The position numbers and the translations under genes were made by a program. DNA of 63,858 bases, counting the filler, from an uncultured Methanosarcinales archaeon (GTDB lineage: Archaea > Nanobdellota > Nanobdellia > Woesearchaeales > CAZKBD01), in assembly GCA_964550945.1 (NCBI GenBank). It is 8 parts of 8 records of this genome, joined end to end, with 100 filler letters (N's around TTAATTAATTAA, not from the genome) between each part and the next. Parts side by side here need not be neighbours in the genome. Positions count along the whole stretch, not along the records: positions 1 to 9,379 come from CAZKBD010000074.1; 7 more parts are not named here. One strand, written 5' to 3'. Positions 1 to 49,811 of the stretch are shown in pieces. The notes beneath the pieces are model-generated. The model searched no databases, was not told the DNA's origin, and saw nothing but the letters and a program-made list of their open reading frames with translations. Each line of letters opens with the position of its first letter. Positions within the stretch are counted from its first letter, which is position 1.

Positions 1-54
1 TAGTTAGAACTATTTAAGAATTGGAAAAATTAAGAATTAATTTTTCCTTTCTTG
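1..54. repeat. 54-bp sequence identical to the reverse complement of 63805-63858; contains the hairpin GGAAAAATTAA-gaa-TTAATTTTTCC
   Basis: Direct comparison of the two window ends; identity stops at base 55. Confidence 0.95.
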
Positions 55-138
55 GCTTCGGAAATGCAATGCATTTTCGAAACATAAGAACTGCTCTGGC
101 ATTTCTTGGCTTCGAAATTCTCGAGAATTTCGAAACAT
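48..138. repeat. Two tandem palindromic units (48-85, 102-138), TTTCTTGGCTTCG-palindrome-CGAAACAT
   Basis: Shared flanks with different self-complementary cores (tcggaaatgc-aat-gcattttcga; tcgaaattctcgagaatttcga). Confidence 0.85.
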
Positions 139-167
139 TTAAAACTTATATTCTATTCTTATGATAT

Positions 168-439
168 GGAAGGCTAGGATGGGAAGTTAGCACTCTCCTG
201 TAACCCTAAACGTGCTTTAGAGGGGTCTGAAGCCATCGAAGAGGTGCTTGCTATGACTATTGGTCTTGGCTCGTACAATGAGGCTCTGTCCTTTAGGGTT
301 GGTGTTTTAGCGAAAAGGGTCAGATCAGGAATGAAGCAGCCCTAAACTTTAGCATCGATGCTTAAAGGGTAGCGGAGCTAAGGAACAGTCAAGGTAAACT
401 AATAGTTACTGCTTGTATCCATTCTTTGGCGTGCCTTCC
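168..439 (+). ncRNA. ffs: Archaeal SRP (7S) RNA
   Basis: Terminal helix GGAAGGC/GCCTTCC; Alu-like CTGTAACCC; helix 8 AGGGT-CAGA-TCA-GGAA-TGA-AGCA-GCCCT with GGAA tetraloop; TATA-like tttaaaa about 25 nt upstream; T-rich tail. Confidence 0.88.
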
Positions 440-456
440 GCTTAATTTTTAGAATT

Positions 457-1389
457 CTATCTAACATAACTTAGCCAATGCTCATATTTCTTGTTCTTAC
501 CATGTACAGCGTCTAAGAATATTTCTTTAATCTTCTTAGTAATCGGACCAGGAGCTTCTTTACCTATCTTTTTGCCGTCTAGACTAGCAATTGGAGTGAC
601 CTCTGCAGCAGTCCCTGTGAAAAAAGCCTCATTTGCATTATAAACATCTTCTAATTTCAAAGCTTTTTCCTCTACCTTGATTCCTTGATCCTTTGCTATC
701 TGCATTATTGACATTCTTGTAATTCCTGGTAAAACATTACCTAACGGAGGAGTTAATAATCTGCCATCTTTGACTAGGAATAGATTTTCGCCAGGCCCTT
801 CTGCTATATTCCCTTTGTAATCCAGCAATAACGCCTCTTCATATCCTTCTTTTTTAGCTTCCAAACTAGCAAAAATTGAGTTAACATAATGCCCGCAAAT
901 CTTTGCGTCTGCATGAGTTGACTTGGGATGGATTCTTAGGTAGCTAGAGGTCTTAACCTTAACAGCTTCCTCTCCTAAATAACTCCCCCAAGGCCATACT
1001 GCAATAGCGCAATTTAATTCAGCTCCTTTTGGGTCTAATCCCATCTTTCCATATCCATAGAATATTATTGGCCTTATATAACCTGCATCTATTTTATTCT
1101 CTTTTATAGTCTTCAAAATAGCTTGATTAAACTCTTCTTTAGTATAAGGAACTTTCATGAATGCTGTTTCAGCTGATTTAAACAAGCGACCAGTATGCTC
1201 TTTTAATCTGAATACAGCAGGTCCTTTATCTGTCTTATAGAAACGAACTCCTTCAAAAACTCCTAAACTGGTCTCAGAGCGCGAACTCTAAAGATATCCA
1301 TAGTGGAGTGTGTGAGTTAAAACATGAACCTTCGCTTCTTTCCATGGAACTAATTTTCCATCCATCCAAATAAATTTGGTTTCTTCCAT
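457..1389 (-). CDS. ilvE: Branched-chain amino acid aminotransferase, interrupted by a 30-nt insertion (300 aa after removal)
   Basis: N-terminus [31 protein letters not shown] upstream of the tracked ORF, then [16 protein letters not shown] (PLP Lys), [19 protein letters not shown]; the in-frame TAG lies in the insert. Confidence 0.93.
1266..1295 (-). other. Candidate BHB (tRNA-type) intron in the ilvE mRNA
   Basis: Insert ATCTTTAGAGTTCGCGCTCTGAGACCAGTT; hairpin plus two 3-nt bulges; cutting after the second base of each bulge yields CAC TAT GGA TTA GGA GTT (HYGLGV). Confidence 0.75.
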
Positions 1390-1430
1390 TTTACTAAGTG
1401 AATAGAATTTTATTTAAAAATGTTTTGTTA

Positions 1431-1590
1431 AAACAACAATATTCCACTCATTTTAGATGATTGGTGAAGTGGAATTTGTTGTGCTCAAAAACCCCCGTTT
1501 AGGAGTGGAATATTGAGTGTCAAAAACCACTTGATGCTTGAACATATGATATTACATGGCACCCGTCTATGGTGGGTGGTTTTTGACATG
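1431..1590. repeat. Nested hairpin / MITE-like intergenic element, copy A
   Basis: Perfect inverted repeat TGTCAAAAACCAC (1518-1530) / GTGGTTTTTGACA (1576-1588); extra arm TGCTCAAAAACC at 1482; ATTCCACT/AGTGGAAT arms. Confidence 0.75.
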
Positions 1591-1597
1591 TTAACAT

Positions 1598-1861
1598 TTA
1601 CTTGTGAAACCTTAACCACAAATTCTTAAACAAAGGCAATGTCAATGTAGACAGCATAAATGCAACAGCAGGGACAATCGCATTCAGCCAAGGCTTTGGA
1701 ATCCTAATTGCCTGCAAATAAATCCCAATCGCCAAATAAGTGAACAAAGTAAGCAATAACCTTCTAGTACTGCTTGTCTCCCAAGCCTTGTCTAGCTCTA
1801 CTTTTTTATTTCTCTCTTTTATTATCTCAATCTCTTTTTGCAATTGTTTTACTGCTACCAT
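1598..1861 (-). CDS. Small membrane protein (2 TM), hypothetical
   Basis: 87-aa ORF with RNKKVELDKAWETS then two hydrophobic segments. Confidence 0.75.
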   Translation of the reverse strand: MVAVKQLQKEIEIIKERNKKVELDKAWETSSTRRLLLTLFTYLAIGIYLQAIRIPKPWLNAIVPAVAFMLSTLTLPLFKNLWLRFHK

Positions 1862-2033
1862 ATATCACATATAGTAGCGCTGGTTTAAATAAATTTCCAA
1901 TGTGCCAGGAATATTTTCAGTTAATAATAAAATAGGAATATAGTCAATATCCAGGTTGAATCTGGAGAGGGGTTCGATTTCATCGAAAAGTATATAAATA
2001 AGTAACCACACATATATAAGTAGGGTGAGTATA

Positions 2034-2261
2034 ATGACCAATGTAACACTAGCTGTACCAGAGGATCTGCATGAAATAATGCAGAGGCATAAGGATATCA
2101 AATGGAGTGAGGTAGCAAGACAAGCCATGTGGGAAAAAGCACGCAAACTTGAGATTATGGATAAGCTTCTTGCCAAGAGCGAATTGACTGAAGAAGATGC
2201 GCTCGAGATTGGGCGCAAAATAAGGCACGGCATTGCAAAAAAACACCGCTTGGCCAAATGA
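2034..2261 (+). CDS. Ribbon-helix-helix VapB-like antitoxin
   Basis: [16 protein letters not shown]...[13 protein letters not shown] pattern; GGTGA SD; overlaps the PIN gene. Confidence 0.8.
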
Positions 2262-2668
2262 AGATTATCATTGATGCAAACAGAATTATTGCTGCGCTAG
2301 TCAAACAGAGCACAACAAGGGATATTTTATTTGATGGAAAATTTGAATTTGTGACTCCTGATCATAGTATTACTGAAATCAATAATCATAAGGAAGAATT
2401 ACAAAGAAAGACAAATCTAACATCTGAAGAATTTGATGTTTTGCTTGCCCTTATTTTTGAAAATATAATCATTCTTCCAGCAGAAACCTACTCACAGTTT
2501 ATGGATGAATGTAAAAATGAAATTAGCGACATAGATGATGCGCCTTACCTTGCAGCATGCCTTGCAAGCAGAGCAGAGGGCATATGGTCACACGATCCTC
2601 ACATTCTCGAACAGAAGAAGGTAAAGATATTCACGAACATAGATATGCTAAGACTTTCTAAACTATAA
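2258..2668 (+). CDS. PIN-domain (VapC-like) toxin
   Basis: [30 protein letters not shown] acidic PIN residues. Confidence 0.88.
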
Positions 2669-3544
2669 GGATAAAAACCACAAGATTAAGGGGATACTAA
2701 CTAAGCCAATCAAAGTGCTGATAAAAACAACAGAAGCAACTAATTCAGAATCCCTTTTGTATTTTTCTGATAAAATAATCGACATAACTGCAGCAGGCAT
2801 TGCAGATTCAATCAATATCACATCCCTTACCAACCCCGTGATAGAAAATAGCTTAATAATTACGAAAGCGATTACAAATCCTATAATGATCCTGAACAAA
2901 GAGGCAAAAAATGCTGTTTTTAACGTTCTTATCTTAATTTCAGTTAATTTATAGCCTAATACCAGTAATGCCAATGGAATCGCAATCATTCCAATCATCT
3001 CCATTGGTTTGAAGAGCATTTCTGGAATCGTTATCTTTAATAAATTTAACAGTAGACCAATAACAACTGCATAGATTAATGGAACCTTAAACGCTTCCTT
3101 TAGCCCATTTTTATGGTGGATTATCCAAATGCCAATGCTAAAAAGAAATAATGAATTTATCATATCATAAACTACTGCTCTTGACAATCCTGCAATGCCA
3201 AAAGCAAACAAACAAATTGGATAGCCTAAATAGCCAGTATTGCCAAAAGACATTGGGAGGTATAATCCTTTTTTCTCTGATTTTGTTGTTTTTAGAATTA
3301 TAAAAATTAACAAAAATGAGATTAAAATAACAGAGCTTGCTGCTAAAGTTATCAACAAAAAATCTGATAGGTTGATATCACTATTGGAAATAGAAGTTAT
3401 TATCAAAAAAGGGCCTGCAAGGTAAACAATCAGGTCAATAAATGGCTGGGTGCTTATCTTTTTGTATTTGCCGATAATGAATCCAGCTAATACAATCAAG
3501 AATACAGGCATTACTGTTTGGAGTATCAAAACAAATGACATCAA
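2663..3544 (-). CDS. AEC (auxin efflux carrier) family transporter
   Basis: About 10 TM; FGNTGYLGYP and SAMPAAV motifs. Confidence 0.9.
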   Translation of the reverse strand: MMSFVLILQTVMPVFLIVLAGFIIGKYKKISTQPFIDLIVYLAGPFLIITSISNSDINLSDFLLITLAASSVILISFLLIFIILKTTKSEKKGLYLPMSFGNTGYLGYPICLFAFGIAGLSRAVVYDMINSLFLFSIGIWIIHHKNGLKEAFKVPLIYAVVIGLLLNLLKITIPEMLFKPMEMIGMIAIPLALLVLGYKLTEIKIRTLKTAFFASLFRIIIGFVIAFVIIKLFSITGLVRDVILIESAMPAAVMSIILSEKYKRDSELVASVVFISTLIGLVSIPLILWFLSL

Positions 3545-3617
3545 ACCAATAGAGAAAGATTGATTATTAAAAGGTTATGGTTTTAAAAGAAAAAAATAAA
3601 AAAAATTAAGAAGTATT

Positions 3618-4781
3618 CTATGCAGCTCTATAGACAACTGGAAGAACATTTTGATCCATGTGTCTTCCTGCTCTAACAATTGCTTCTCTACCTTTCCCAG
3701 CTACTGCCAAGTCAAATCTGTACATATCTTCTATCTCATGTACGAGCGCCGCACAAACCGCTCTTCCTGGGCTATCTTGCGCATAGTCATGTAATGGCTT
3801 TAATGCTTGCGCAAAATCGACCATACCATCACCAGCAACTCTTGCAACCCAAATTCCATCGTCGTGAGGCATATATGTTCCGGTTCCCATTAGGCCATTT
3901 GCTAAAACGACACCAGGTCTTGTAGCAGTATCCTTAATGTGGGCTGAATAAACTCTGTCTTTCCATTTCTCAGAGAAAGCTGCCATTTCCTTATTTGCTC
4001 TTACATGGTCTCCCAAGTGAGCATATAAACACTGGTTATATAGGTGTGACCAATCTATCATAACACCTACTCCCGGCATATCCGTGGTTGCTTCAAGCAG
4101 AGCATCCATTAAATAAGGCGTACCTGCCCAGTTTGTAACTGGATTATTTAACTTTGCTGACGTAAATGTTCTTTGCATTGGACAATTTTCAAACAATATA
4201 AACCCGCCATAAACCTCCCTAATTTCTTGGACCAACTCACGAACCATTCTCTGGTATTCAGTTCTTATAGCTCTTTGAGTTTCTGGTCTTGATATTGTTA
4301 CTGGATCTGTTTTTATTCCCAGTTTGTCTAGAATTCTATCAGCAGGATTTCCTGCAAATATTGTGTAAGTTTCAACTCCTATATGCTGCAGAGCCCTTGC
4401 ATTTTCAATAATATGTGCCCTGTGTGTATCATCACCTAGGGTGTTCATACAAGTGGTTCCACCAGTAATTATAGTTCCTAGATCCGCTTGCATTCTTTCT
4501 ATTTTTTGTCTCGCTTCAGGATCTGCTAACATTTCACTAGGTTGGAAAGTTCCAGCAAAGAAGTCCCTTTCACCAGGGAATAACGGAACATCTACTCCTG
4601 TTATTGAGACTCCATTTTCTTCTCGAATTTTTTTAGCAGTTCCAAAAAGGTCTTCAATTCCCTCATACCCATGAAACTGGTGCTGGAATTGAGTTGCAAT
4701 CCCTAACATTGAATGAACAGGTCTACCATTTGCATGATAAAGCCTATCAATATTTCTTACTTCGATTATTTCTGGTGCCAT
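3618..4781 (-). CDS. Xylose-isomerase-like TIM barrel (sugar-phosphate isomerase/epimerase)
   Basis: LFENCP, DWSHL, AHIKD, GDGMVDF, HEIED metal-binding pattern; divergent. Confidence 0.75.
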   Translation of the reverse strand: MAPEIIEVRNIDRLYHANGRPVHSMLGIATQFQHQFHGYEGIEDLFGTAKKIREENGVSITGVDVPLFPGERDFFAGTFQPSEMLADPEARQKIERMQADLGTIITGGTTCMNTLGDDTHRAHIIENARALQHIGVETYTIFAGNPADRILDKLGIKTDPVTISRPETQRAIRTEYQRMVRELVQEIREVYGGFILFENCPMQRTFTSAKLNNPVTNWAGTPYLMDALLEATTDMPGVGVMIDWSHLYNQCLYAHLGDHVRANKEMAAFSEKWKDRVYSAHIKDTATRPGVVLANGLMGTGTYMPHDDGIWVARVAGDGMVDFAQALKPLHDYAQDSPGRAVCAALVHEIEDMYRFDLAVAGKGREAIVRAGRHMDQNVLPVVYRAA

Positions 4782-4848
4782 TTTTCCTCATCCTCCACTT
4801 GTTTTTATAATTTAAAAAAATAAAAAATTATAACCTTATTCTCTTCAA

Positions 4849-6162
4849 TTACTTGAATCTGCAATTTTGAATAAAGTTATAAAATTGTTTTCCTGGATCA
4901 ACAATATGAGCACTGTCCTGCCCATAAATAAGGGCTGGTTCATTCCATCTACTAGCTACTGTCCTAACAGCATCAACAGCTTGCCCCATTGTTCTTTCAG
5001 TAAATGCCCGCATTATTCCGGGATCTTGACTCCTAATAGCACCAATCATATCAAGCGATTCATCAAGAACCATATCACCATATCCTTTCGAATGCCCCCC
5101 AGGCCTTCCGCTAATACTTGGTGCTGAACCTCGCTCATACACCCTAGTTAAACCATATCCCTTATCTTCAACAAACAGTTGGTTTGGGTGTTCCTGGAAC
5201 CATGTTATTGTACCTTTCTCACATTTTACTGAGACATAGAAATGATTCTCATTTCCAGCATCTACTTGCGACAATCTGTATTTACCTTTAAATTCATGGT
5301 CATTAGGCATTCTGTAAGTCCATTCTGCATATGCTCTGTCATCACCAGATGCAGCTATGTCATCCATCCTTACCTTCTCAACTTTAGACCCGCCACTGCC
5401 TCCTGTGAATGTAACTGCAGAAGCAGCCTTATCAAGCCACCTATACTCATGTAGGTTATATCTTTGTCCTGTAAACTTTACAAACTCTCCTCCGAAAAGA
5501 TGATGTGTTGTCATAACTTGATGTGATCCAAGGTCTCCAGTAAGTTTTCCCTTTCCCGCTAAATCAATCCATGGTCTCCATCCAATATTCATGTGTGGAT
5601 CTACCTGCCAACCTTGGATATAACCCATCTCAACTTCATCAACAAGGCCCATTTCCTTTTTGGAGCCATCTTGAAGCGTTAATGCACCTGAACTTATTAT
5701 CTCCCTTAGCTGGTGTGTTAGAACATCTGTATGCCTATACTGAGAGTTTATTTCAGCTACGACACAATTTTCCAATGTAGCTTGCATTACAGCTTCAGCA
5801 TCTTCAACAGTCGTGGCAAGAGGCTTTTCAAACAATATATGCCTTCCAGCTTTAGCAGCTGCTTTACCCATTTCAGCATGCATACAATTTGGAGTTGCAA
5901 GATACACCAGATCAACTGGCACGTTAAGTTGGGTTAGTAGAGTATGATAATCCCCAAAAGTCCCAGTTAACTCTAAATCAGGAAAGTTATTAATTCTCAT
6001 ATAATTTGTGACTTCCTCATTTGTTTGGCCCAAAGCAGCAACAATCCTTGCAGTGCCTTGCTCTAAAATATGAGGCGCTATACTGCCCATCATCCCTAAA
6101 CCAACAACCGCAACATTTACATCATGATCTACTGCTCTTCTTTGTAAAACCATCTTCCTCAT
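4849..6162 (-). CDS. Gfo/Idh/MocA family oxidoreductase
   Basis: VVGLGMMG, VYLATPNCMH, HILFEKPLA, GDLGSH. Confidence 0.85.
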   Translation of the reverse strand: MRKMVLQRRAVDHDVNVAVVGLGMMGSIAPHILEQGTARIVAALGQTNEEVTNYMRINNFPDLELTGTFGDYHTLLTQLNVPVDLVYLATPNCMHAEMGKAAAKAGRHILFEKPLATTVEDAEAVMQATLENCVVAEINSQYRHTDVLTHQLREIISSGALTLQDGSKKEMGLVDEVEMGYIQGWQVDPHMNIGWRPWIDLAGKGKLTGDLGSHQVMTTHHLFGGEFVKFTGQRYNLHEYRWLDKAASAVTFTGGSGGSKVEKVRMDDIAASGDDRAYAEWTYRMPNDHEFKGKYRLSQVDAGNENHFYVSVKCEKGTITWFQEHPNQLFVEDKGYGLTRVYERGSAPSISGRPGGHSKGYGDMVLDESLDMIGAIRSQDPGIMRAFTERTMGQAVDAVRTVASRWNEPALIYGQDSAHIVDPGKQFYNFIQNCRFK

Positions 6163-6414
6163 TCCTCCATCATCATTTTTTTACTATAATCTCTATTAAC
6201 TATCTCTATGTTAACGGTTTATCACTCTTTTTTTACAATAGAAGTTACTGAACTCATCTGTTCTAGAACCTAAGAAAACGTTCAAACTTGAAGATATATT
6301 GTATGCCGTTTTAATACCCCCTAACGAATTATTTGATTGAGAAATCAGCTTATTTATATAGTTTTTGTAAATTTTACGTCGGAAAAATGTCCCAAATTGG
6401 TGACAAAAATCCAA

Positions 6415-8055
6415 CTATTTCCCGTAACAATTCTTTCCTTTAAATTTCTCCCTGTATATCTCAAGCAAAGGAGTCATCTTTCTGTTAGGGGCTTTTACTT
6501 TATTTAGCCTTTCCTTTATTTCTTTATCTGTTAGCTTAACATTAACCTTCCTTTTGTCTATGTCAATCTCAATAACATCTCCATCTTTTATTGCAGCAAT
6601 TGCCCCTCCATTGTAAGCTTCCATCTCAACATGGCCGATGCATGGCCCAGATGTGCCGCCAGAAAACCTTCCATCAGTGATTAAAGCAACTTTCTTGTAT
6701 CCGGCTCCTTTTATTGCATCTGTTGGTGTTAACATCTCAGGCATGCCAGGAGCACCGCAAGGCCCTTGGAAAGGCAGAACAATAACATCTCCTTCTTTTA
6801 TTTTTTTAGCTTGAATATCAGAAAGCAGATCATCCTCATTATAAAACACCTTAGCTGGGCCAGTGTGCTTCCTCATGCTTTCATCAACAGCAGTCTGCTT
6901 GATAACAGAGCTGTGAGCAATATTCCCCTTGAGAACAGCAATGCCTCCTTCTTTCATAAAAGGATTATCTAATCTTCTAATCACATCATCATCAGTAACT
7001 TTTCCTTCGTTCGCAATCTCTTTTATTGATTTTCCATTTACTGTTGGCGAGTCTTTTAGCATATCTTTCAATCTGTTTAGAACTCCTGGAACTCCTCCTG
7101 CTTTATCAATATCAGCCATCTCATAAGTACCAGAAGGAATTATTTTGCACAAATTTGGAGTTTCTCTTGAAATTTTATCAAATATATCTATAGTAACATC
7201 AACACCAGCTTCTTTAGCAATTGCTGGGATATGCAATACTGTATTAGTTGAGCCGCCCATTGCCATATCCACTCTTATTGCGTTCTCAAAAGCGTTCTTT
7301 GTCATTATATCCTTTGGCTTGGTATCTTTCTTAACTAGCTCTACAATTTTTCTTCCGGTTTCATAAGCCTGTTTTTTCTTTAAAGGATTCAAAGCAAGTG
7401 TTGTCGCGCATCTTGTAACAGACATTCCTAAAACTTCTGTTACAGTTGCCATTGTATTTGCTGTGTATAATCCGACACAGCTGCCTGCTCCGCAGACCAT
7501 GCAAGGAAGCATTTTAGCAGCTTCTTCTTCGCTCATAGTTCCTCCTTTAACCTGGCCTACAATCCCAAATCCCTCAATTGGATGGTGTTTTGAGCCATCT
7601 TTCATAACATTAGCTTTCATAGGGCCGCCAGTCAAAATGATAGCAGGTAGGTTAAGGCGACCGCAAGCCATCAACATGCCTGGCGTACATTTATCGCAAT
7701 TGGTTATACCAACCCAACCATCTAGACTATGACTTAAGACCATAATCTCTATGTTGTCTGCAATGTGCTCTCTAGATGGCAAAGACAATCTCATGAAAAA
7801 ATGCATTGCAATGCCATCGCACACCGTTGGGACACCCCACTCGAAAGGCACTCCTCCTGCATCAATAATGCCTTTTTTCACTTCCTCCTTCAGTCCATTT
7901 AAGTGTATGTGCCCTGGAACAATATTAGTATAAGAGTTTGCTATTCCAATCCAAGGTTTATCTAAATTAAAGTCTTCTTTCTTTAAACCGCAAGACATTA
8001 GAAGTGCTCTGTGGGGAAGAGCCTCTATACTTGTTTTAAGCTTATCACTTTGCAT
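6415..8055 (-). CDS. ilvD: Dihydroxy-acid dehydratase
   Basis: PGHIHL, VCDGIAM, NCDK, GGSTN, GAPGMPEM, LITDGRFSGGT; start at MQSDKLK. Confidence 0.95.
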   Translation of the reverse strand: MQSDKLKTSIEALPHRALLMSCGLKKEDFNLDKPWIGIANSYTNIVPGHIHLNGLKEEVKKGIIDAGGVPFEWGVPTVCDGIAMHFFMRLSLPSREHIADNIEIMVLSHSLDGWVGITNCDKCTPGMLMACGRLNLPAIILTGGPMKANVMKDGSKHHPIEGFGIVGQVKGGTMSEEEAAKMLPCMVCGAGSCVGLYTANTMATVTEVLGMSVTRCATTLALNPLKKKQAYETGRKIVELVKKDTKPKDIMTKNAFENAIRVDMAMGGSTNTVLHIPAIAKEAGVDVTIDIFDKISRETPNLCKIIPSGTYEMADIDKAGGVPGVLNRLKDMLKDSPTVNGKSIKEIANEGKVTDDDVIRRLDNPFMKEGGIAVLKGNIAHSSVIKQTAVDESMRKHTGPAKVFYNEDDLLSDIQAKKIKEGDVIVLPFQGPCGAPGMPEMLTPTDAIKGAGYKKVALITDGRFSGGTSGPCIGHVEMEAYNGGAIAAIKDGDVIEIDIDKRKVNVKLTDKEIKERLNKVKAPNRKMTPLLEIYREKFKGKNCYGK

Positions 8056-9379
8056 TTCTAACAACCTCCACAAAATTCAAATATGGTCTCCAAGGAACTC
8101 GCCATTCTTGAATATTCTTACTTGTTTTATAAAACTCAAAAATAGGTGTTTTTTGAGTTGTTTTTATTATGTTCTTATTAAGAGTATCGCCATCTATTTT
8201 AATAAGTTTCGCCATTTTCTTCAAATCATAAAGAGGAATTGACTTCTTACCATAAATATAGTTTGAAATAACTGACTGGGTTCTTCCTAGATAATTTGCC
8301 AACTTTCTTTGTAGCTTGAATTCATCCATAACTCTCTTAAAGAAATATAGCCTAAAATCATTTTTTAGCATAATATTTTGATTATCAACATTATATTTTT
8401 GAGCTTGGTAATCGTCGAATGGTTGAATGATCTTAGCATTTCTTAAAATGTGAATGTAAACTCCTAGCGAAATTGAAGTAATTTCTATATGTTTCTCCTT
8501 AAGTTTGGAGATTATATCTTTATTAGTAAATGGTTCGCTGGAGGGTATGAGGTTTATTATATCTGAAAACGAGACTTTTGATAAGGCTACCTTGGAATAA
8601 GTCCTATCAAATGCTAATTTTGCTTCCGTTAAAGACTTGACCTTACCTTGAAAACCATAAACTAGTTCGTTCAGCCTGTACCATTTTTCTGTATTCTCTT
8701 CAAAATACTCGAGTAATACAGGATTCCTATAATCACTCTGAAAATAGTATTGGTCCTTGAATTCAGAATATTTTAGGGGTCTTAATCTAACTCCATTATT
8801 GGATACTGTTTGATATACGGAATTTACTACCTCTTTGCTTTTCATTGTTAGAGCAACCATTCCTCTGCAATCAACACTGCCGTCAAAAGTCAAGACACCG
8901 AGAGCAAACGCTTTTCTAAAAGATGGATTGGATTTTTTTATAATTGGTGGCTCCTCAACTATATCACATTTCTTACCAATTGGAAAGCCTAAAAACCTAT
9001 TGAGGTATCTTCCAATAATCCTGCTTTTAAAAACTATTGTCCAAGCATTTTTGCTTTTTGANNNNNNNNNNATGGGATTGGTTTGACTGAATAACCAAAG
9101 CACCCATCTAACCAATCGCAAAACTTCTCCACTGCTAGTTTATCGTGGTCTACTAATTGATAATTATATTCACCCCACAATGCGCCATCTGCTGCGTGTG
9201 CTCCGGCTAGTTTACATAGGGTTAGATTTAATTCTTTTAATGCTTTGATTGGTTTTGAGTCGTATCTCGAGATGGATAAAACTTCAATTCTATCTTGAAT
9301 TTTTTGTTTAATTTCCTCTTGATTTTCAAATTGTTTAGAAAGAGCCCCTAAGAATATGAGGGGAAATTTCTCATATTTA
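8045..9379 (-). CDS. Double-LAGLIDADG endonuclease-like protein with C-terminal HTH domains (5'-partial, spans a 10-N gap)
   Basis: Motif 1 KLAGAHAADG read manually upstream of the gap; motif 2 AFALGVLTFDGSV; XRE-like QRKLANYLGRTQSVISNYIYG. Confidence 0.7.
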
Positions 9380-46143: not shown

Positions 46144-47400
46144 CTAAGGATTTAAACCCCAAGGCTCTAAAACCATCTTTAAAGCTTCTTCTCCCTGGAT
46201 GTAAGCCAAAAATAATCCATAGTTGGTAAAAGGAACGCCAATTGATTCCATATCTTTTATCCTTGCTGCCAATTTCTGAGAAGATATCATACAACCGCCG
46301 CAATGGATGATCAGTTTATACTGATTTAACTTATCATTTTCTTGGAATTCCCTCCCAAAATTATGCTCCAAATCAACACCTGGAAGATGCTTCTTAAAAT
46401 AATTCGGAATTTGGACTGTTCCTATGTCTTCTCCGATCCTCGAGTGATTGCACGCCTCAACTATGAGTACTTTATCTTCTGGTTTCAATCGGTCCAAGGC
46501 TTTTATCCCTTCAACAAATTTGTTAAGTTTGCCTCTGCTGAAATAATTAATCATAGTTATAGAGAAGGTTGTTAGTTTTATATCATGAGGAACCCATTTA
46601 GCCATTATGTCCATTGCCTGTGAATCTGTAATTATTGCTTTTGGCCTTTTATTAAAATTATTAATAAAATCCAGAAATCTTTTTTTTTCTTTTTCAGATT
46701 CTTCGCCTCTTGCTTTGGCTAAATCCATCCTGAAAGAGACAGGATACGCCCAATTTCTGGTTATGTATTCTTCACACATTGCCTGTGGCCTTAAATACCT
46801 TCCAGGGGGAGTTTCAATGTCCATAGGTATGTTTAATATATAATATTCATCCTTTTTGATAAATGGTAGAAGATCTATCTTAAGATTTTTTGATTCAAAA
46901 TTATCAATAATAAAATTAAGCAATGGCTGCCTGAATTCCTCTTTAATTGCCCTTATCTTTATTTTTTTGTAGAATCTCGCAAGATTAATTTCTTTTTCAA
47001 TCAACTCAATATCCTTTTCATCTTCGTCATTAAAAAGATTATAAACAATTAAGATCTGCTTATCCATCTCCCTAGATTTATCAATTATTTCTTTCTCAAC
47101 ATTAAAATTTTCAGCAGACGGGTCTATAACAACCAAAACTAAATCACATTCCTTTAAATCAGAAAAAACTTTTTTTCTTTTTTTATCCCCCAACTCTCCA
47201 GTTTCATCAGCTCCTGCCGTGTCATATAACTTAACAGGCCCTAAACCATGAATTTCTTGCAATGCAATCCTGGTGTCTGTCGTTGTTCCTGGCATAGAGT
47301 CCACAATAGATGTCTCCTGTTGTGTTAACAGATTCATAACACTGCTCTTACCCGAGTTCATTTTCCCAAATATGCCCATATTATCCCTCTCTACTATCAT
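46144..47400 (-). CDS. hydF: [FeFe]-hydrogenase maturation GTPase HydF
   Basis: GKMNSGKS, PGTTTD, DTAG, ITDSQA, EACNH and HCGGCM cluster ligands. Confidence 0.9.
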   Translation of the reverse strand: MIVERDNMGIFGKMNSGKSSVMNLLTQQETSIVDSMPGTTTDTRIALQEIHGLGPVKLYDTAGADETGELGDKKRKKVFSDLKECDLVLVVIDPSAENFNVEKEIIDKSREMDKQILIVYNLFNDEDEKDIELIEKEINLARFYKKIKIRAIKEEFRQPLLNFIIDNFESKNLKIDLLPFIKKDEYYILNIPMDIETPPGRYLRPQAMCEEYITRNWAYPVSFRMDLAKARGEESEKEKKRFLDFINNFNKRPKAIITDSQAMDIMAKWVPHDIKLTTFSITMINYFSRGKLNKFVEGIKALDRLKPEDKVLIVEACNHSRIGEDIGTVQIPNYFKKHLPGVDLEHNFGREFQENDKLNQYKLIIHCGGCMISSQKLAARIKDMESIGVPFTNYGLFLAYIQGEEALKMVLEPWGLNP

Positions 47401-48439
47401 TTTGCCTCCTGACAAAGTGTTTTGAATCTCCAAGTTCGCCAAAAGCAGGCCTCAATCCGACAGATCTTATTCTGTTAGTTATGCAGCCTAAACAATCTTC
47501 TGATGATTCATTTATACACGGCTTATCTTTGTACAATTGATAGTTCTCCCGATATTGTGTTGGCGTTACAATAGGCATTATCACATTTGCCCCTGCTTTT
47601 AGCCCTAATTCCCTGCCAACTTGGTTTATTGCCTGCAAAGCAGTGGTTGATGCTATGTTTATGTCAGGCATCATCAATCTTAATGATGCTATCATATTAA
47701 GCCCAAGATTAAGGTTTATTTTTTTATTATAACTGCTATCATCCATTGGAGCATATTGGCACGGAATATAAGGCCCCATTCCAACCATATCAACATCCAT
47801 TTCCTTGAAAAACAATAGGTCATTAGCTAGATTTTCAATCTTCTGGCAAGGGCTTCCGATCATTACTCCTGTACCCACCTGATAGCCAATGTCTCTTAAA
47901 TATTTTAAGCATCTTTTTCTTTTTTTAAAGTCCATATTTTTTGGATGTAGCTTATTATAGTGCTGTTCATTGGAAGTTTCTATCCTTAATAAATAGCGAT
48001 GTGCTCCAGCATCAAAAAATTTTTTGTAAACTTTTTTGCTTTGTTCGCCTACACACAATGTGATCCCTATTTTAGGAAATCTTTTTTTTATTGAACTGAT
48101 TGTATCCGCAAGAAAACCAGTAAATTCCCTTGTCCTTAACTCTCCGGACTGCAGGACAATAGATCCGTATTTTGCTTTATCGCAGAATTTGACACAATCC
48201 ATTATCTCTTTTTTGGACATAGTGTATCTTTTAAGTTGATCGTTTGATTTTCTTATCCCACAGTATAGGCAATCATTTCGGCAGATATTTGAAAACTCTA
48301 TTATTCCTCTGAAATAAACATTTGTTGAAGCAGTTTTATCCCTAACTAAAGCTGCTTTCCTATGCAATTCCTGCTGCGTTCTTCCTTCTGATTTTAGATA
48401 TGCTATTATCTCGTCAAAAGTAAAGGTCTCTTTCTCCAT
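47381..48439 (-). CDS. hydE: Radical SAM maturase HydE
   Basis: RGIIEFSNICRNDCLYCG, LQSGE, LLRIET, YQLY, C-x7-C-x2-C tail. Confidence 0.88.
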   Translation of the reverse strand: MEKETFTFDEIIAYLKSEGRTQQELHRKAALVRDKTASTNVYFRGIIEFSNICRNDCLYCGIRKSNDQLKRYTMSKKEIMDCVKFCDKAKYGSIVLQSGELRTREFTGFLADTISSIKKRFPKIGITLCVGEQSKKVYKKFFDAGAHRYLLRIETSNEQHYNKLHPKNMDFKKRKRCLKYLRDIGYQVGTGVMIGSPCQKIENLANDLLFFKEMDVDMVGMGPYIPCQYAPMDDSSYNKKINLNLGLNMIASLRLMMPDINIASTTALQAINQVGRELGLKAGANVIMPIVTPTQYRENYQLYKDKPCINESSEDCLGCITNRIRSVGLRPAFGELGDSKHFVRRQNDSREG

Positions 48440-49811
48440 GCTCTATCCTCCTAAGGTACTCAACTGCTTTTTCTCTCCTCTTTTGATTGGGAATATTATT
48501 TAATTCTCTCTCAATTAATTCGTTTCCTGCTTTTTTTGTTTTTTCATCAGCATAATCAACTAGGTATTCTTTTAAAGTTGTAAGCGCATTCGGAAGGCAA
48601 TGAAGCTTGATTAGTCCTGGCTTTGCTAAATCCATAAAATCTTTTCCAACTCTTCCGAGCCTATAACAGCCAGTACAGAATGATGGCACAAACCCTTGTT
48701 TTATCACTGAAGTTATAACTTCCCTGGTAAGTCTATTATCGTTCAAGCTGAACTGTCCATCCTCAGCCGGATTTGTTGATGCTTCTTTGTAGCCGCCGGG
48801 ATTTGTTTTTGAGCCTGCACTTATTTGAGAAACGCCTAGATTGAAGAGCTGCGATCTCATATTTGAAGACTCCCTTGTTGATAATATCATTCCAGTATAA
48901 GGCAAAGCGCATCTTATCACTGCCACTAATTTCCTAAAATCTTGGTCTGAGACAGGACTAGGAATATCAATTGAAGCAGGAGCATTTTGCGCAGGTTCTA
49001 TCCGTGGAATAGAAATAGTATGCGGCCCAATACCATAAGTGTTGTCTAGATGTTGTGCATGCTGTAAAAGGCTCAGAACTTCAAACCTGTAATCATACAA
49101 CCCAAATAACGCCCCTATTCCAACATCTTTTAAGCCGTTTTTTAAGGCCCTGTCCATTACAGATAGCCTCCATTCATAATCTGCTTTTTTACCAGAAGGG
49201 TGCATTTTTTTATATGTTTCTTTGTGATATGTTTCCTGAAATACTGTGTATGTCCCTATCTTGACTTCGCTTAATCTTACAAACTCTTCGTCTCTTAAAG
49301 GAGCGATTTCAATGTTTATCCTTCTTATCGAGCTCCCTTTAGAGTCCCTTACAGAGTAGGCTGCATTAATGCATTCCAGAAAATAGTCAAACGAACATTC
49401 ATCATACTTCTCTCCCATCAGCATAAGTATTCTTTTGTGGCCTTGTTCCAAGATAGTTTTTGTTTCTTCTTTCACTTCTTCAATGGTTAAGCATCTTCTT
49501 TTCATGGATTTGTTATCTTTTCTAAAGCCGCAGTATAAACAGTTGTTGGTGCAGGAATTGGATATATAGAGGGGAGCAAATAAAACCAGCCTGTTGCCAT
49601 ATATTAAATTTTTAATTTTAAATGCTGTATCAAATAGCCTGTTCATTATAGCCAGATTGTTCGAATCTGTATTTAGTAAAGAGGCCGCATCATCTAAGTT
49701 AAGCCCCTTTAACCTCAATGATTCTCTTAATATCCTTTTTACCTTTTCTTCAGAAAAGTCATTATTTTTTTCTAATGCCTCGTCTATTTCTGCTTCCTCA
49801 ATAATGTTCAT
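48414..49811 (-). CDS. hydG: Radical SAM maturase HydG
   Basis: FAPLYISNSCTNNCLYC, FQETYH, GPHTIS, C-terminal C-x2-C-x22-C (which distinguishes HydG from ThiH). Confidence 0.92.
   Translation of the reverse strand: MNIIEEAEIDEALEKNNDFSEEKVKRILRESLRLKGLNLDDAASLLNTDSNNLAIMNRLFDTAFKIKNLIYGNRLVLFAPLYISNSCTNNCLYCGFRKDNKSMKRRCLTIEEVKEETKTILEQGHKRILMLMGEKYDECSFDYFLECINAAYSVRDSKGSSIRRINIEIAPLRDEEFVRLSEVKIGTYTVFQETYHKETYKKMHPSGKKADYEWRLSVMDRALKNGLKDVGIGALFGLYDYRFEVLSLLQHAQHLDNTYGIGPHTISIPRIEPAQNAPASIDIPSPVSDQDFRKLVAVIRCALPYTGMILSTRESSNMRSQLFNLGVSQISAGSKTNPGGYKEASTNPAEDGQFSLNDNRLTREVITSVIKQGFVPSFCTGCYRLGRVGKDFMDLAKPGLIKLHCLPNALTTLKEYLVDYADEKTKKAGNELIERELNNIPNQKRREKAVEYLRRIEHGERDLYF

Follow-up and report, generated by a model that had tools for sequence, protein, structure and literature searches.

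The ilvE locus and its insert

The window analyzed here is a stretch of 63,858 nt from an archaeal genome of 1.97 Mb (177 contigs, 92% complete; G000 below), the sole member of its family in the genome collection. Titled records carrying closely related ilvE alleles are mostly labelled Woesearchaeota or Nanoarchaeota; for L046, the archaeal order in the record title differs from the order assigned in the genome collection. On the minus strand, the sequence reads from an ATG at 1389 to a TAG at 457-459 as an ilvE gene, encoding a branched-chain aminotransferase, that is open throughout except for a 30-nt insert (Table 1). The insert lies within the HYGxGVFEG motif, whose HYG portion presumably has a role in the active site, and it brings an in-frame TAG (1290-1288), so that the unspliced mRNA of G000 would encode just a 33-aa peptide. 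An earlier note on this DNA had described ilvE as intact apart from these 30 extra nucleotides with their TAG, and had proposed that removing them yields HYGLGV and a 300-aa IlvE. The sequence agrees with the first statement, and in-silico deletion of 1266-1295, which gave HYGLGVFEG and a 300-aa protein, confirmed the second. In the same register test, deletion of 1267-1296 gave the identical protein, and deletion of 1265-1294 gave a stop.

The hairpins immediately upstream of ilvE have seven matches of at least 88 nt elsewhere in the genome (three on contig C5 and one each on C16, C36, C87, and C161) and are probably a dispersed repeat. Sugar genes similar to those lying between ilvD and ilvE occur at the ilvE locus in genomes G118 and G199. 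Farther along the window, a GTPase gene and two radical-SAM genes are, judging from sequence features, hydF-hydE-hydG-like.

Table 1. Features of the ilvE locus and of the splicing machinery (window positions, unless a G000 contig is named)
Feature	Coordinates	Strand	Remarks
Archaeal SRP RNA	167-440	+	Rfam match; convergent with ilvE 3′ end
ilvE exon 2, class-IV aminotransferase remainder to stop	457..1265	-	PF01063, E 1.9e-55
Exon-2 half of predicted splice motif	1259..1265	-	bulge base T, A, outer-helix strand GGAGT
Predicted intron, 30 nt	1266..1295	-	same-site 29-31 nt inserts in G161, G209, G100, L055, L073/L074, L077
Predicted intron layout	1294-1272; 1271-1268	-	bulge base A, inner hairpin (1294-1272), central-helix strand CCAG (1271-1268), two bulge bases
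ilvE exon 1, M1 to HYG	1296..1389	-	31 codons and first base of junction codon
Exon-1 half of predicted splice motif	1296..1309	-	ACTCC (1309-1305), unpaired AC, T, ATGG (1301-1298), bulge AT
Three abutting hairpins	1426-1600		immediately upstream of ilvE
PIN-domain gene and small upstream partner	2025-2668		between ilvD and ilvE
Sugar isomerase-like and oxidoreductase genes	3618-6162		between ilvD and ilvE
Free-standing LAGLIDADG-like gene	8045-9379	-	continues on C99; overlaps ilvD start
GTPase and two radical-SAM genes	46144-49811
EndA	C4:40347-40988		214 aa
tRNA genes with T-loop or D-loop introns, some with two introns	C5:19560-19680, C6:34442, C88:800, C42:14040-14700, C162:1879		missed or misread by ARAGORN

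The RNA around the insert is predicted to form every helix and bulge that the earlier note had listed for a motif of the bulge-helix-bulge (BHB) kind: an outer helix ACTCC/GGAGT, a central helix ATGG/CCAG of three pairs plus an A.G, bulges AT|A and TT|T, and an inner hairpin. However, the outer and central helices are not contiguous: two exon bases (AC) and a single T-A pair separate them. In the predicted minimum-energy fold, the 3′ cut site falls in a 4x5 internal loop, which can alternatively be described as a 3-nt bulge whose flanks comprise the A.G, a single T-A pair, and an exon bulge of 2 nt. We therefore regard the motif as relaxed and not canonical. The strict hBHBh′ form would require a central helix of 4 bp and, at the 3′ cut, a 3-nt bulge that a continuous outer helix closes. 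The insert-bearing alleles described below fall outside it, with three pairs plus A.G in 7/7 and the 4x5 loop on the 3′ side; for the 5′ cut, a 3-nt bulge between two helices is predicted in 7/7 and in the consensus. The stability of the 71-nt fold is ordinary (z -1.08; 31/200 shuffles were as good), and the same central and inner pairing arose in 79 of 20,000 shuffles of the intron. A homology-free scan of the genome for BHB geometry with rescued reading frames was useless as a discriminator, returning 60,261 candidates and placing ilvE 98th of 1,099 after filtering. The case beyond chance comes instead from the pairing geometry and from the recurrence of an insert at this very base in six further alleles.

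Both ilvE exons are under purifying selection (dN/dS 0.05-0.14). Between G000 and the intron-bearing allele L077, exon 1 shows 97% amino acid identity and a dN/dS of 0.048, and exon 2 a dN/dS of 0.087; the corresponding exon 1/exon 2 values are 0.081/0.14 for G209-L055 and 0.062/0.06 for L074-L055. Intron-less pairs gave 0.03-0.13, more distant pairs being saturated at silent sites. Pseudogene-like relaxation of selection, which the earlier note had said would speak against its proposal, was not seen, the values resembling those of the intron-less pairs. In this 92%-complete genome ilvE is the only PF01063 match found. The best matches to leuA, leuB, leuC, leuD, ilvB, ilvC, and ilvD contain no stops, and ilvH is a single ORF (pathway gene names inferred from sequence).

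Same-site inserts in other ilvE alleles

Among 401 genomes of the order, 57 matched IlvE at E<=1e-30, and inspection of the best 30 loci revealed an insert at the same base in four, each from a different family: G000 (30 nt), G161 (29 nt), G209 (29 nt), and G100 (31 nt). A pattern scan of 185,579 genomes (inserts of 12-42 nt, a TTT Phe codon, H-T/S/A-L upstream) gave 11 matches, seven of them not IlvE; the four IlvE matches were the three relatives just named and a new allele, L055 (29 nt). With the same settings, metagenomes gave eight matches, of which five were not IlvE and three were: L077, with a 30-nt insert in a gene 84% identical to G000 ilvE and an intron differing at one base, and the identical pair L073 and L074, also with 30 nt. 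Seven distinct intron alleles were thus available, with inserts of 29, 29, 29, 30, 30, 30, and 31 nt. None of the 12 non-IlvE pattern matches had both the central and the inner helix, L075 having three central pairs alone.

Of the 44 alleles in the working set, 7 carry the insert and 37 lack it. Aligning ilvE across related genomes, as the earlier note had suggested, disclosed same-site inserts with conserved pairing. Intron-less congeners are present for two intron-bearing genomes (G049 for G161, G347 for G209). The unpublished genome G209 supplies one allele, one dN/dS pair, and one EndA check; without it six alleles remain and the conclusions hold. Two further unpublished genomes, G207 and G131, served as intron-less comparators and pathway queries. 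We excluded G425 (L213), whose ilvE has no insert and a point stop, a single TGA directly after the FEG motif.

Left unspliced, all seven intron alleles would give products of 33-37 aa, four through a frame shift and three through an in-frame stop. A single cut rule, cleavage after the second bulge base, restores HYG-L/M/A-GVFEG and an open frame in 7/7. Residue 32 would then be Leu, Met, or Ala; the alleles that give Ala number three and fall in one group, where among four intron-less relatives three have Ala and one has Gly. Shifting the cut by +1 produces a stop or a charged residue. Cuts at -1 and -2 give Leu or Thr, which are plausible too, so the protein alone leaves the cut register unfixed.

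Across the alignment of the seven alleles, 96% of 124 cells pair, compared with 36-57% for slid partners, a pairing result reached by 12/500 shuffles; the structure computed by RNAalifold is nearly identical to the alignment-based pairing. Two pairs are altered on both sides, both in G100, and one of these is a central U-A that became C-G after a silent change in the Tyr codon. Six exon-exon pairs are intact in 7/7 intron alleles versus 1/37 intron-less ones, and the Gly31 codon is GGA in 7/7 versus 8/37, counts that are not independent because the alleles are related. In their predicted structures, the intron alleles keep a conserved pairing around a variable interior, as expected of a relaxed, cbf5-like BHB form.

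Splicing machinery and competing readings

The EndA encoded by G000 has Tyr, His, and Lys residues aligned to Y295, H303, and K334 of M. kandleri, and its best match among solved structures in the PDB is N. equitans EndA. An apparent lack of the catalytic Tyr, suggested by a KFG sequence, was rejected: the catalytic Tyr is that of RVYD, and KFG occurs in N. equitans EndA as well. No second EndA subunit was found in the genome, and relative to M. jannaschii there is no insertion near the catalytic His (specificity loop). RtcB is present, its first ~110 aa lying off a contig end. EndA was also found in the intron-bearing genomes G161, G209, and G100.

ARAGORN found 12 tRNAs in G000, a low count because many tRNA genes carry introns, some of them in the T- or D-loop; at a low threshold its output was noise. 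We examined eight anticodon-loop tRNA introns and resolved seven, six of which have one mismatch in the central helix. In 7/7 alleles the A.G mismatch of ilvE occupies the outermost position of the central helix, which is paired in all seven resolved tRNA introns. Imperfect or non-canonically positioned introns being common among the tRNA genes of G000, its EndA may plausibly tolerate the relaxed ilvE motif outside a tRNA. As far as the accessible text of the two reports goes, cleavage of relaxed motifs outside tRNA has been tied to the crenarchaeal EndA heterotetramer (Yokobori 2009, PMC2738675) and to specific loops (Kaneta 2018, PMC5829648); enzyme and intron background is also given in the accessible parts of PMC6125680 and PMC13149111. 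Set against these enzyme rules, the one EndA subunit found in G000 is the main open weakness of the splicing reading.

We consider the 30-nt insert to be a relaxed BHB intron of the ilvE mRNA, predicted from sequence to be spliced by EndA and RtcB (probability roughly 0.88). The same proposal in the earlier note is strongly supported by the recurrence in 7/44 alleles, the structure, the selection on the gene, its being the sole copy found, the unbroken pathway, and the enzymes; what has to be given up is a canonical motif. In the folded pre-mRNA, exon 1 would supply ATGG and two bulge bases, and the intron would supply the hairpin, CCAG, and two bulge bases, the exon flanks closing the outer helix. 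On the 5′ side EndA would then cleave behind base two of the 3-nt bulge, and on the 3′ side at the corresponding point of the looser loop; the exon junction would fall between bases one and two of codon 32, and RtcB would reseal the exons to give a full-length branched-chain aminotransferase. The intron itself is probably close to neutral, a passenger that persists because it is spliced out and exact deletion seldom occurs. Branched-chain transamination would depend on splicing, as the earlier note had suggested, in the plain sense; the patchy distribution described below offers no sign of a regulatory role.

Ribosomes can also pass over an insert, translational bypassing being known from T4 gene 60 and yeast mitochondrial byp. 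Here they would leave the mRNA at the Gly codon that precedes the hairpin and resume at a later Gly codon, the RNA staying uncut, and in 7/7 alleles there is indeed a GGA before the insert, a GGR after the junction codon, a hairpin between them, and an early stop in the unspliced frame. A hop from Gly to Gly would, however, remove two residues of HYGxGVFEG, whose spacing is constant in 37/37 intron-less alleles. The codon that follows GGA is moreover a sense codon in 7/7, with a stop two to six codons later, and a hop would have no need of the splice geometry present here, in which the exon flanks pair mutually and exon 1 pairs with the far end of the intron. We consider bypassing highly improbable, and give no better odds to inactivation of ilvE by the insert, for example as the remnant of a small mobile hairpin repeat. 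Loss of biosynthetic genes is common in DPANN archaea, this genome contains a dispersed hairpin repeat family with one copy immediately upstream of ilvE, and a few of its other genes look broken. Yet a search of the genome revealed no second copy of the insert, and the idea that it is itself a dispersed repeat was dropped on that ground. Both exons show purifying selection at pS 0.23-0.73 and the seven alleles have no further breaks; nor would inactivation sit well with a gene that encodes the sole class-IV aminotransferase found, in a pathway that is otherwise unbroken.

A split enzyme, formed with no splicing at all from the short exon-1 peptide and an exon-2 protein whose translation re-initiates, appears more improbable still. 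Exon 1 is conserved and exon 2 opens with GTG or TTG in five alleles, but with GTT in G000 and L077. The next in-frame start in G000 lies 27 codons on (window 1185), at the cost of GVFEG and the strand that follows, and the conserved RNA geometry would be left unexplained. The most remote of these readings is an assembly artefact: low coverage, several single-base errors, and N gaps speak for caution with this assembly, but inserts of the same type are found in six independent assemblies, including that of L077, and these alleles already refute it. Among the contig pieces listed from four DNA runs, none bridged the site and none showed a 30-nt skip, which counts neither for nor against, and no RNA run with the locus was among six runs listed.

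Known introns, origin, and possible spread

The cbf5 introns of Desulfurococcales and Sulfolobales are described, in the accessible text, as 16-44 nt long, mostly of unconventional BHB form, and bordered after the first base of a codon (Yokobori 2009, PMC2738675). So far as that text allows the comparison, the ilvE introns resemble them in being short (29-31 nt), in lying in coding sequence at a conserved motif with the border falling between bases one and two of a codon, in having a mostly unconventional BHB, a predicted cut between the second and third bulge base, and a variable interior, in being too small for a nuclease gene, and in being absent from some lineages through what would be loss. 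Within the same limits, they differ in their host, ilvE being a metabolic gene of a DPANN (Woesearchaeales-type) archaeon whereas cbf5 encodes an RNA-modifying protein of Crenarchaeota, and in their enzyme, a single EndA subunit type with no visible specificity loop as opposed to a heterotetramer. The ilvE intron is carried by a minority of alleles (7/44) scattered on the tree, whereas the cbf5 intron is an ancestral majority; cbf5 splicing was seen by cDNA, and ilvE splicing is predicted from sequence.

The available portions of a study of Haloferax volcanii report a 46-nt BHB intron in the 5′ UTR of HVO_1309, demonstrated by circRNA-seq and in vitro, and state that, up to then, the one other case in an mRNA was cbf5 (Schwarz 2020, PMC7714728). 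Judged from these portions, HVO_1309 shares with the prediction for ilvE that the tRNA splicing endonuclease acts on an mRNA of an archaeon other than a crenarchaeote; unlike the ilvE insert, its intron lies in a UTR and leaves the reading frame unbroken. Archaeal tRNA introns with relaxed BHB or BHL motifs, as covered in the accessible text of Kaneta 2018 (PMC5829648) and PMC12397907, would share motif logic and enzymes with ilvE, and the tRNA introns of G000 tolerate a central mismatch. Against these, too, the ilvE motif stands apart, with no tRNA body around it and its mismatch at the outer position.

No report of an ilvE intron, or of a BHB intron in a DPANN coding sequence, was found in the literature searched, which included few subscription papers and no supplements; in the same literature, splicing of an archaeal coding sequence by the tRNA machinery is described for cbf5 alone. 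An intron in ilvE would widen both the host range and the enzyme rules. It would also mean that a complete branched-chain pathway of a DPANN archaeon scores as broken, because an intron-bearing ilvE looks truncated or frameshifted. The seven natural variants of a 60-nt substrate are well suited to a direct cleavage test, and with alleles of both kinds, carrying and lacking the intron, inside each of two genera, the gain, loss, and homing of mRNA introns in archaea can be tested.

On a tree of 44 IlvE rows the insert requires five changes, at least three of them forced by starred branches; the intron alleles form a single clade in 0% of 200 bootstrap trees, and 27/500 shuffles were as low in changes. 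This patchy distribution fits either mobile spread or repeated exact loss. Spread is favored by the upstream flank: when 38 windows of 9 nt were compared, the one 28-20 bases upstream gave the strongest separation of intron from intron-less alleles. The Leu codon eight before the junction is TTR in 7/7 intron alleles versus 1/16 Leu-bearing intron-less close relatives. This flank bias may in part serve an extended helix.

Endonuclease genes were sought inside and beside the intron. There is no endonuclease ORF inside it, the length being 29-31 nt in 7/7 (the scans covered 12-42 nt, and the loci examined by protein search had no longer insert), and no group I or group II catalytic core, which would take hundreds of nucleotides, in its 30 nt; the sole Rfam match in positions 1-9379 is the SRP RNA. 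For spread, there is in G100 a divergently oriented gene of 442 aa (L058:2866-4194) directly upstream of the intron-bearing ilvE that is LAGLIDADG-like (PF14528, E 7e-4, under the cut-off). Against it, 400 other genomes of the order gave no homolog of this gene, and no adjacent LAGLIDADG-like gene was seen at the other six intron alleles, the L077 contig being only 1.5 kb long. The free-standing gene that overlaps the start of ilvD in the window has two LAGLIDADG-like motifs by eye and a Pfam HTH match alone. Its homologs, present in 12/400 genomes, adjoin ilvD (G377, G347), pheS/pheT, an Nre-like gene, fusA, and glyS (names inferred), and it looks like a member of a family of free-standing homing endonucleases. 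As a driver of the ilvE intron it was dropped: the family tracks ilvD and other conserved genes, and occurs also beside intron-less ilvE (G377, G347).

A scenario that we hold tentatively, as possible rather than probable, is that ~30-nt mRNA introns spread horizontally in Woesearchaeales and are cut by a plain single-subunit EndA at a relaxed motif lacking a tRNA body, with a free-standing LAGLIDADG protein promoting homing in trans between ilvE genes and ~30 nt of 5′ exon moving along. If true, splicing of coding sequences in archaea would be a recurrent mobile trait of metabolic genes, beyond cbf5.

Within G000, the intron appears to be isolated. We compared its ORFs with 2,623 ORFs from G118 (1.58 Mb), G016 (0.8 of 1.3 Mb), and 13 small regions, which provided a homolog for 1056 of 2010; an intron shared with the reference sequences would escape this comparison. 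The 59 break clusters held no second insert of the ilvE kind, the others being antisense artefacts, N gaps, two inteins, and single-base errors. Among the genes covered, carB and cbf5 are unbroken, as is the assembled part of rnhB, and the compared parts of G118 and G016 contain no such introns. The earlier note had supposed that this lineage splices protein-coding mRNA with EndA/RtcB and had proposed scanning the bin for further in-gene BHB insertions; in the roughly half of the ORFs compared, ilvE is the sole such break, so that widespread mRNA splicing is not supported for this genome.

Other gene interruptions were observed in the genome. Contig C4 (minus strand) encodes in-frame inteins of about 383 aa in MCM and about 465 aa in topoisomerase VI B. 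Single-base breaks, probably errors of a low-coverage assembly, occur in ahcY-, etfA-, rpl4-, and dph2-like genes and in two other genes (C46, C19, C2, C56, C26, and C157).
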